A stretch of 64,000 nucleotides of DNA, taken from NCBI RefSeq assembly GCF_003018255.1, contig NZ_CP027440.1, one strand, 5' to 3'. This document shows positions 30,801 to 33,800 of the stretch, in pieces (position 1 is the first letter of the stretch; each line of letters opens with the position of its first letter). The stretch is from Escherichia coli (lineage in GTDB: Bacteria > Pseudomonadota > Gammaproteobacteria > Enterobacterales > Enterobacteriaceae). A program made the position numbers.

Positions 30801-33800
30801 TAGCGTAATATGTTCCGGGCGAATGCCGAGAGTCATTTTACGTCCAGCATACTGACGGTAGCCACCGTTTAGCGGCAGCGCGATACCGCCGTCCAGTTCG
30901 AAATGCGTACCTTCGTTATTCACACGCCCTTTCAGCAGATTCATCGCCGGACTGCCGATAAAACTCGCCACAAACAGGCTGGCGGGCTTTTCGTACACTT
31001 CAACTGGCGTGCCAATCTGTTCGGCAACGCCGCCGTTCATCACCATTACTCGCTGGGCGAGCGTCATCGCCTCAACCTGATCGTGGGTAACGTAGAGTGA
31101 AGTCGTTTTCAGGCGACGGTGCAGCTGTTGCAGTTCAAGACGCATCTGCACACGCAACTTGGCATCGAGGTTAGAGAGCGGCTCATCAAACAGGAACACT
31201 GCCGGCTCACGCACAATCGCACGCCCCATCGCCACACGCTGACGCTGACCGCCAGATAGCTCACGCGGGCGGCGCTTAAGCAGGCCGTCCAGCTCCAGAA
31301 TGCGCGCCGCTTCTTTAACGCGCTCGGCAATTTGCTGCTTGCCCATGCCGCGAATTTTCAGCCCCCACGCCATGTTTTCTTCGACGCTCATATGCGGATA
31401 AAGCGCGTAGTTCTGGAACACCATCGCAATCCCGCGATCTTTCGGCTCCATTTCGGTGACACGCTTGCGGTCGATCCAGATATCGCCCGTCGTTACCCGC
31501 TCCAGTCCGGCAACCATTCGCAATAACGTCGATTTCCCGCAGCCAGACGGCCCGACCATCACGATAAATTCGCCATCCGCCACATCAAGGGTCAGCGGTT
31601 TAATGACCTGGGTTTTGCCATCCCAGCTTTTGGTTACTGCCTGTAATTTCAGTCCTGCCATCTTATTTCTCACTATCGACCAGGCCGCGCACGAAGGCAC
31701 GCTGCATCACTAAAACAATCACTACTGGTGGGATCAGGGTTAACAACATCGCCGCCATCACCGAGTTCCATTCCGTTGTGCCTTCGCCTGTGGCGATCAT
31801 CCCTTTAATCCCTGCCACGGTGGTGCCGAGATCAACGTCGGTAATAATCAACAACGGCCACAAATACTGGTTCCAGCCGTAGATAAAGGTGATCACAAAC
31901 AGCGCCGCCAGATTGGTTTTGGACAGCGGAAAAACGATGTCGCAAAAGAAACGCATTGGTGACGCGCCGTCGATCCGCGCGGCTTCCACCAGTTCATCCG
32001 GTAGGGTCATAAAGAACTGGCGAAACAGAAACGTGGCGGTCGCCGAGGCCATCAGCGGCAGCGTTAAACCTGCGTAGCTGTCGAGCATTTTCAGGTTGGC
32101 GATGACTTCCACCGTCGGGAAGATACGCACTTCAACCGGCAGCATCAGGGTGATAAAAATCATCCAGAAGAAGAGGTTACGTAGTGGAAAACGAAACCAG
32201 ACAATGGCAAAGGCCGAGAGCATCGAGACGGTAATTTTGCCGAGCGTAATGCTGAACGCCATCACAAAGCTGTTAAGCAACATCCGCCAGAACGGCGCGC
32301 TATTCGTGCCTACCCCGTTCACCCAGATGTTGTGGATGTTTTCCAGCAGATGCGTGCCGGGGATTAGCGTCATCGGCGCGGCGTAGACGGCTTGTTTATC
32401 CAGTGTCGCCGCGACAAACGCCACGTACAGCGGGAAGAGGATCACCGCGATCCCGAGGATCAGCATGGTATGGCTGAATATTGTCAGCCACGGACGGTTC
32501 TCAATCATTGGTAACGCACCTTGCTTTCAACATAGCGGAACTGCACCACCGTCAGCACGATGACGAGGAACATCAACACCACCGACTGCGCGGCAGACGA
32601 AGCCAGATCCAGTCCGGTAAAGCCTTCGCGGTAAATCTTATAAATCAGCGTCGTGGTGGCCTGAACCGGCCCGCCGGACGTGGCGGCGTCGATCACCGGG
32701 AAGGTATCGAAGAAGGCGTACACCAGGTTCACCACCAGCAGGAAGAAACTCACCGGAGCGATAAGCGGCAGCGCAATCTTAAAGAAGCGGCGAATCGGGC
32801 CTGCACCGTCGATGGCTGCGGCTTCGATCAACGAACGGGGAATGGATTGCAGCGCGGCATAGAAGAACAGAAAGTTGTAGCTGATTTGCTTCCACACCGA
32901 GGCAAACACCACCAGAAACATCGCCTGACCGCTGTTTTGCGCGTGGTTCCAGTCGTAGCCGAACTCAGCGAGAAAATGGGTGATCAGCCCGCGACCGGGG
33001 TTAAACAGGAAGATCCACAATACGGCGGCAACGGCGGGAGCCACAGCGTAAGGCAGCAGCATTAAGGTTTGATAGAAACGGCTGCCGCGCACGATGTACT
33101 CCACCAGCGCCGCAAAGAACAGCGACACCAGCAAACCGCTGACGGTGACAAAGGTGCTGAATTTTATCGTCGTCCAGAAGGAGTCGAGATAGTAGCTGTC
33201 ATGAAACAGCGTGACGAAGTTATCCAGGCCGACAAACTGGCTGGAGAAACCAAACGGATCGACGCTTTGCAGCGAGTACCACAACGCTTCGCCCGCAGGC
33301 CAGATAAAAAAGATAACGGTGATGATGAGCTGCGGCGCGACCAGCAAATAGGGCAGCCAGCGCGAGCGGAACACCGGACGGGATGATGACATAGTTAAAC
33401 TCTTCGTGTTGTGTTCCCCTCACCCCGGCCCTCTCCCCAGAGGGGCGAGAGAGAAAGGCGGTGCATACTTTCCCACCGAGCGAAGTTGCAAACCGACACG
33501 GCACCAGGATACCACGCCGATCGGTCCCCTCTCCCTTTGGGAGAGGGTTAGGGTGAGGGTAAGAGAATTAAGACTTCGTAGACTGCTCAAAGCGGCGCAG
33601 TAACTGGTTCCCACGCTCAACGGCGGTATCCAGCGCCTGCTGCGGTGTCTTCTTACCGGTCCACACGCTCTCCAGCTCTTCATCCACAATCACGCGGATC
33701 TGCGGCATGTTGCCCAGACGCAGCCCTTTGGTGAACGGTAACGGCGGCTTATTCAGCATCTGACGCGTCGCGGTATCCGCCCCTGGGTTTTTCTCATAAA

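Follow-up and report, generated by a model that had tools for sequence, protein, structure and literature searches.

BoxC repeats in the ugpB-ugpA and zntA-tusA spacers of Escherichia coli

The GC-rich imperfect palindromes observed in two intergenic spacers of a 64-kb stretch of Escherichia coli DNA (64,000 nucleotides of contig NZ_CP027440.1, referred to here as the window) belong to a repeat family long known in E. coli, that of BoxC (synonyms PIT and TM-ECO), which is present here in three copies. The best explanation, which is very probable, is that of three BoxC copies, of which a type A and a type B copy form a pair filling the ugpB-ugpA spacer, and which are most likely selfish or neutral and without a dedicated host function. 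As the family was already known, the finding is real but ordinary. The presence of a BoxC pair at ugp, where most E. coli have a REP pair, is mildly unusual. Three results are new here and in line with the published instability of BoxC: the count of the ugp BoxC spacer (317 of 5,426 genomes), the REP/BoxC dimorphism across genera, and the complementarity found in 9 of 9 pairs.

The initial annotation had placed related elements twice, in opposite orientation, between ugpA and ugpB and once more between zntA and tusA, and all of them were recovered at these positions. A sensitive blastn-short scan detected exactly three related elements in the window and no further copy. All three are intergenic. 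Their placement was also as described, with one site inside an operon (ugpB-ugpA) and the other between the convergent 3' ends of zntA and tusA. The features are as follows.

32505-33392, - strand: ugpA
33393-33567 (175 bp), - strand: ugpB-ugpA spacer, a composite inverted BoxC pair; the element fills the whole spacer
33417-33464 (motif 33451-33417), - strand: type B BoxC / TM-ECO unit
33464-33452, - strand: tail of the type B unit, GCACCGCCTTTCT
33451-33443, - strand: pyrimidine block of the type B unit, CTCTCGCCC, one substitution relative to the pattern, followed by loop CTCTG
33437-33429, - strand: purine block 1 of the type B unit, GGGAGAGGG, followed by loop CCG (33428-33426)
33425-33417, - strand: purine block 2 of the type B unit, GGGTGAGGG
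33512-33560, + strand: type A BoxC / TM-ECO unit, fitting the published pattern with zero mismatches
33512-33526, + strand: tail of the type A unit, CCACGCCGATCGGTC
33527-33535, + strand: pyrimidine block of the type A unit, CCCTCTCCC, followed by loop TTT
33539-33547, + strand: purine block 1 of the type A unit, GGGAGAGGG, followed by loop TTA (33548-33550)
33551-33559, + strand: purine block 2 of the type A unit, GGGTGAGGG
33568-34884, - strand: ugpB
49507-51705, + strand: zntA
51711-51738, + strand: perfect 10-bp hairpin ACCGATCGCA/TGCGATCGGT, adjoining the zntA-tusA unit on its upstream side
51739-51774, + strand: decayed type A BoxC unit in the zntA-tusA spacer (51706-51798, 93 bp)
51740-51774, + strand: motif of this unit, CCCTCGCCT CTCTG GGGAGAGGG TAA GGGAAAGGC
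51799-52044, - strand: tusA, its 3' end facing the 3' end of zntA (convergent)

Each element consists of a pyrimidine block and two purine blocks, the latter 12 nt apart as a direct repeat. The elements had been described as two-arm palindromes of the form CCCTCTCCC...GGGAGAGGG; the two arms are real, but the defining third, purine-rich block GGGTGAGGG had been overlooked. Matches in the window exceeded those in shuffled controls for the 21-nt double purine block at three mismatches or fewer (2 matches, 0.00 expected), the palindrome pattern (1 match, 0.00 expected) and the shared tail GATCGGTCCCCTC (2 matches, 0.04 expected). BoxC was reportedly described by Bergler in 1992 and by Bachellier in the 1990s, and PIT, for potential intrastrand triplex, by Hoyne and Maher in 2000/2002.

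The published TM-ECO pattern is CCCTCNCCC N3-6 GGGNGAGGG N3 GGGNGAGGG (Holder et al. 2015, PMC4666352), and TM-ECO is the element earlier named BoxC in the 1990s and PIT by Hoyne and Maher in 2000 (PMC4666352). BoxC also appears among the known E. coli families in an independent survey, as a 56-bp element with 32 copies in the older literature (PMC2267715). When the three elements were tested against the pattern, 33527-33559 (+) was an exact match, 33451-33417 (-) matched apart from a single substitution in its first block (CTCTCGCCC), and 51740-51774 (+) failed in the third block (GGGAAAGGC). The genome of MG1655 holds 23 TM-ECO copies, which are divided by their second loop into type A (TTA) and type B (CCG), and all five inverted pairs of K-12 combine type A with type B (PMC4666352). 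The second loops of the ugp pair, TTA in the + strand copy and CCG in the - strand copy, correspond to these two types, and the ugp type B unit is 95% identical over 43 nt to the type B unit of K-12 lldD-trmL. The units extend beyond the triplex motif by type-specific 5' tails of about 13-15 nt, which agrees with the definition of BoxC as an element of about 56 bp. Among 24 oriented copies, these tails were GCGCCGATCGGTC-like in type A and GCACCGCCTTTTCT-like in type B, and they were kept across loci and genera. The 3' arm of the hairpin at 51711-51738 is the type A tail (CGATCGGTC), which is also found in front of the type A unit at ugp.

The view that the palindromes form a genuine repeat family apart from REP was thereby borne out, and the family that had been left without a name is BoxC / PIT / TM-ECO (PMC4666352; PMC2267715). 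The three-block motif, the loop types, the inverted pairing of A with B, the strictly intergenic location and the variability from strain to strain are all shared with it. K-12 lacks the ugp site, which is not one of its 23 copies; compared with the pattern, the pyrimidine block of the type B unit in the window shows an additional substitution, and the zntA-tusA copy is without its third block and no longer fits. Searches of Rfam at permissive and gathering thresholds gave no family on the element (best E = 0.11, well short of the gathering score). The only gathering-level Rfam match in the window was RyhB.

The element at 41445-41555, from which the palindromes had rightly been kept apart, is an unrelated REP pair (BIME), and the ugp spacer of the window did not match the REP consensus (GCCGGATG...CATCCGGC-type palindromic unit). 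REP/BIME elements resemble BoxC in being GC-rich, imperfect, intergenic palindromes, with a comparable or, for REP, stronger predicted RNA hairpin, but have zero sequence similarity to it. Enzymes of the RAYT family mobilise REP, and REP is documented to act on mRNA stability, attenuation and translation, whereas for BoxC we know of neither a mobilising enzyme family nor documented mRNA effects.

A genome-wide motif search had been proposed to establish copy number, and it showed BoxC to be multi-copy. Of 5,426 complete E. coli genomes, 5,425 contain the 36-nt consensus, which was found at 93,029 places in all, with a median of 19 places per genome and a range of 1-33; 364 places were on plasmids. 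Because the motif occurs genome-wide, it is clearly not unique to the two spacers. Strain 104 (NZ_CP029164), which is 100% identical to the window over this region, contains only 3 BoxC places, and this lineage is therefore copy-poor. The window does not come from K-12. Enterobacter asburiae LF7a and E. cloacae are copy-rich.

Read in the mRNA sense, the ugp spacer consists of the type A unit in reverse, a 75-nt interior containing both tails, and the type B unit; the arms are 29 nt long and 79% complementary. Over its whole length the spacer can be aligned with the K-12 lldD-trmL pair (70% identity), and it also aligns with the flgG-flgH and phnK-phnL pairs of other strains. In each of the nine BoxC pairs, which come from E. 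coli and six other taxa, the outer and the inner blocks match across the arms by 9/9 Watson-Crick pairs, and in two taxa both outer blocks have changed together, by an A-to-T / T-to-A double change (CCCTCTCCC / GGGAGAGGG). The loops are just as regular, one arm always having TAA/TAG and the other CCG/TCG (9/9 pairs, several genera). Locally, the hairpin in the type B arm often contains a mismatch, and in these variants the pyrimidine block finds a better partner in the third block. Perfect complementarity across the arms together with a constant A/B asymmetry points to some constraint, which could lie in transposition ends, gene conversion or structure and which pure neutrality leaves unexplained. 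This is a weak point of the neutral reading.

The ugp spacer exists in two unrelated versions. The 175-bp BoxC spacer was found in 317 of the 5,426 complete E. coli genomes (about 6%), and essentially all the remaining genomes (about 94%) have a 97-bp ugp spacer, which in K-12 and NC101 is a REP pair with zero similarity to the spacer of the window. Strain 104 and APEC O2-211 are among the strains with the BoxC allele. The exchange between REP and BoxC covers exactly the stretch between the start codon of ugpA and the stop codon of ugpB, and the segment directly upstream of the ugpA ATG goes with the allele: BoxC spacers have a AGAGTTTAACT-like segment there and REP spacers a TTCAGGAATTAAC-like one. 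Within the final 50 nt of ugpB there are 6 differences from K-12, compared with 0-2 per 50 nt elsewhere, and UgpB ends in EQSTKS and not EKSTKS, with Q for K at the fifth residue from the end. As regards import by recombination at ugp, the short divergent patch pointed to no identifiable donor genus and the other flanks were typical of E. coli.

Spacers between ugpB and ugpA, found with UgpA, were also surveyed in one genome per species, and the same dimorphism was seen in other genera of the Enterobacteriaceae. REP pairs were present in the E. coli representative genome, E. albertii, Citrobacter, Pseudocitrobacter faecalis, Pseudescherichia and Cedecea, and A/B BoxC pairs in the same orientation in a Pseudocitrobacter MAG, Pluralibacter, Kluyvera, Superficieibacter, strain RIT691 and Enterobacter cloacae. 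The spacer of Enterobacter sp. BIGb0383 is a collapsed single hairpin, and that of Leclercia has one BoxC unit within the loop of a REP pair. From the sampled genomes we infer that two old ugp spacer haplotypes may persist, or may be exchanged between lineages.

K-12 TM-ECO no. 16 (3,608,684-3,608,719) is located between zntA and tusA (PMC4666352). Judged by alignment, the zntA-tusA copy of the window is a decayed orthologue of it. An 8-bp deletion (TGAGGGGA) and 2 substitutions within the motif separate it from K-12, and these changes destroyed the third block. The intact form, longer by 8 bp, was found in about 4,900 genomes and the shortened form of the window in roughly 95-420; the longest forms reach up to 613 bp. 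The lldD-trmL spacer has five length alleles (197, 185, 154, 72 and 47 bp). Exactly one 12-nt purine-block repeat is missing from the 185-bp allele (a 12-bp deletion); the 72-bp allele holds only a remnant of the element and the 47-bp allele nothing of it. All three loci examined (ugp, lldD-trmL and zntA-tusA) were multi-allelic, in agreement with the published tie between TM-ECO and local variability (PMC4666352). The alleles at ugp and lldD-trmL, when compared, differed only by irregular replacements and deletions of internal sequence; neither a target-site duplication nor a clean empty site was seen. Local instability is the main demonstrated consequence of BoxC, in the form of slippage deletions between purine blocks, replacement of whole spacers and multi-allelic loci.

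The identity of the elements, their anatomy, their copy number and their polymorphism are shown by the data above; any effect of BoxC on RNA, like its mode of spread, is something we infer. A unit comprises three blocks of 9 nt, one of pyrimidines (CCCTCNCCC) and two of purines (GGGAGAGGG, GGGTGAGGG), together with a short tail specific to its type, and the pyrimidine block can pair with either purine block to give alternative hairpins in RNA or single-stranded DNA. The ugp pair, to judge by its position, would be co-transcribed with the operon and would form a very stable fold from 8 nt past the ugpB stop codon. By analogy with the REP pair in its place elsewhere, it would hinder degradation of the mRNA in the 3'-to-5' direction and would benefit UgpB relative to the permease subunits.

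RNA folds were predicted with a model restricted to Watson-Crick and wobble pairing. For the ugp BoxC spacer, the transcribed strand gave -79.8 kcal/mol (z -3.6), with the outer blocks closing a multi-branch structure that begins 8 nt past the ugpB stop codon; the ugp REP allele gave a 24-bp hairpin of -49.4 kcal/mol. Single BoxC units had z values of -0.6 to -2.5, no better than base composition predicts. Among the ugpB-ugpA spacers of Enterobacterales, 35 of 44 had z < -2, with a median of -4.6, but the 22 other spacers of the window, used as control, had a median best-strand z of -3.7. Since structured spacers are the rule in the window, the strong fold at ugp is weak evidence for selection, and fold z-scores across species, considered as a sign of function, were weakened by the same control.

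Scans for terminator-like sites (a GC-rich hairpin with a U-tract) found 0 in 33200-33800 and 0 in 51500-52000, and a promoter scan found no promoter-like site at either spacer. PIT elements had no promoter or terminator activity and left RNA polymerase unaffected in work from Maher's group, as summarised in PMC4666352, and BoxC copies have neither positional nor orientation bias relative to genes (Holder et al., PMC4666352). The idea that the palindromes act as mRNA stabilisers or attenuators was not supported, in that the published PIT assays were negative and terminator-like and promoter-like sites are absent here. In the available part of the supplement of PMC4666352 (63 loci in the study), ugp is not mentioned. 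A literature search on ugp intergenic mRNA stability and on REP-dependent ribosome stalling yielded nothing usable. On the findings from scans, folds and published assays, the elements were rated as known selfish or neutral repeats.

One alternative, which we regard as doubtful, is a selected RNA element at ugp. Here the BoxC pair would be kept because it works between the cistrons as a stabiliser of the mRNA or as a partial attenuator, a function that the REP pair could equally fill, and would set a high ratio of UgpB to permease. The position right behind a binding-protein gene is the classic position of REP, as in the malE-malF and hisJ-hisQ operons, and both ugp alleles are predicted to form a very stable fold 8-14 nt past the stop codon. 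The 35 of 44 spacers with z < -2 are structured regardless of sequence family, and the pair has been retained in a genome with only 3 BoxC places. The orientation of the BoxC spacer and its ribosome-binding-site tail (AGAGTTTAACT-like) are common to E. coli, Kluyvera, Pseudocitrobacter, Enterobacter and Pluralibacter, but a common orientation may indicate no more than descent from one allele. Most spacers of the window are equally structured, a U-tract terminator is absent and the published PIT assays gave no terminator activity, all of which speak against selection for the RNA. A REP-like, mRNA-protecting role of the BoxC pair, confined to ugp, is by this analysis plausible, with the balance tilted against it. 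In a stronger version, which we consider unlikely, the ugpB-ugpA gap would be an old trans-generic cassette with two alleles, REP or A/B BoxC, each with its own ribosome-binding-site tail, and the stable fold would be what is selected.

BoxC could also spread as a MITE-like element, a proposal we hold to be rather improbable. The A+B pair would then be the true unit, a non-autonomous transposon of about 100-300 bp moved by an unidentified enzyme, and solo units would be its decay products. Type A is always paired with type B and never with type A, the type-specific tails lie outside the triplex motif, and the perfect complementarity of blocks across the arms is as in terminal inverted repeats. 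The copy number, which varies from 1 to 33 between strains, and the BoxC unit inside the REP-pair loop of Leclercia are also consistent with mobility. MITEs such as ERIC/IRU and the Neisseria Correia elements are likewise small, have terminal inverted repeats, are co-transcribed and are polymorphic for presence and absence, but BoxC differs from them in having no observed target-site duplication or known parent IS, common solo half-units and ends that are systematically unlike (A versus B). At ugp the inverted repeats are present; a direct duplication flanking the pair is absent and the alleles are irregular replacements. The missing target-site duplication and clean empty site at ugp and lldD-trmL, with boundaries that vary by allele, argue against transposition, as do the two arrangements of pairs, with purine blocks outward or inward (PMC4666352). 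No transposase is known, and an association with mobile elements was not found by Holder et al. (PMC4666352). A link to the DUF559 gene ycjD, a possible nuclease noted in a BLAST result, was dropped because ycjD only adjoins the classic BoxC site upstream of fabI.

Holder et al. (2015) proposed a role as DNA triplex, in which the three blocks would fold on single-stranded DNA in vivo and stall replication, leading to local instability that is perhaps adaptive; we find this unlikely as the explanation of the elements. It would account for the conservation of all three blocks where a hairpin needs just two, for the multi-allelic state of 3 of 3 examined loci, and for deletions that take exactly one purine block or part of one. 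The TM-ECO consensus, as single-stranded DNA in vitro, formed a purine-motif intrastrand triplex by CD and NMR, but triplex protection was not detected by DMS footprinting in vivo (both PMC4666352). The 12-nt direct repeat of the purine blocks accounts for slippage by itself. The pyrimidine block of the 'G' variants is better matched to the third block, and alternative hairpins could equally explain the conservation of the blocks; the conserved tails are left unexplained by a triplex.

Chance resemblance among unrelated GC-rich hairpins such as terminators, which might be entertained since the palindrome is short and an unrelated hairpin of similar flavour lies at 27527-27552, is refuted beyond reasonable doubt by the match counts (2 against 0 expected for the 21-nt block), the 93,029 places genome-wide and the shared tails.

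Naming the repeat keeps it from being taken for a new regulatory element. For the family, slippage deletion of single purine blocks is a concrete route of decay, and the perfect complementarity across the arms and the fixed A/B asymmetry across genera must be accounted for by any model of BoxC spread. The ugp spacer is a natural swap inside a phosphate-starvation operon, with BoxC in about 6% of E. coli where about 94% have REP, and it offers a chance to learn whether BoxC affects mRNA. If the two-allele cassette were true, BoxC would have its first cellular role, as a REP-equivalent protector of mRNA 3' ends or as a ribosome-proximal roadblock, and two unrelated repeat families would be functionally interchangeable.

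Further elements were located in the window:
24177-24241 (-), RyhB small RNA, an Rfam match at gathering level with 83 bits
27527-27552, a simple hairpin, GGCCCTCTTC-CCAC-GAAGAGGGCC
41445-41555, a genuine REP pair (BIME), with arms at 41464-41479 / 41512-41527 and 41448-41458 / 41538-41548

RyhB was the only match at Rfam gathering level in the window. The REP pair is flanked by convergent genes and was found to be unrelated to BoxC. Membership of the BoxC family was also ruled out for the hairpin at 27527-27552, whose likeness to the BoxC stem is superficial; this hairpin is probably a terminator stem. 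The strongest fold among the spacers of the window was observed for the zntA promoter spacer, with a z score (fold relative to base composition) of -11. This promoter region holds a perfect palindrome, ACTCTGGAGTCGACTCCAGAGT, at 49440-49475, which we take to be the operator of the MerR-type regulator ZntR.

Downstream of zntA, the zntA-tusA spacer (51706-51798) was found as multiple alleles across E. coli (matches H158, H166, H167 and H168). Some genomes have gained an insert, either about 170 bp or about 390 bp long, one of them with an annotated hypothetical protein, and in other E. coli, such as APEC O2-211, most of the spacer was without similarity.

Allelic variation was also observed at lldD-trmL, the locus of a BoxC pair in K-12. 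In E. coli O145 RM8988-C1 (L092:135-175), a 35-bp palindrome, CTGTCTCTTGATCAGATCTCCTGATCAAGAGACAG, takes the place of the sequence between the two arms of the BoxC pair. The allele carrying this palindrome is common, being present in 4 of the 30 sampled rows, and spans about 354 bp. The arm of the palindrome presumably matches the inside end of IS50/Tn5, and the palindrome may represent either a mini-element or what is left of an IS.

In other genera the ugpB-ugpA spacer was enlarged, to 218 bp in Kluyvera (L017:783-1000) and 308 bp in Superficieibacter (L021:693-1000), and both carry an internal tandem duplication within the interior of the BoxC pair. In Superficieibacter the duplicated unit has a length of about 120 bp, with part of a BoxC stem at the start of each unit. 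In Leclercia adecarboxylata (L019:846-1000), one BoxC unit, whose tail is of type B, is located within the BIME loop, between its two REPs. The Leclercia spacer looks like an intermediate between REP-type and BoxC-type spacers.
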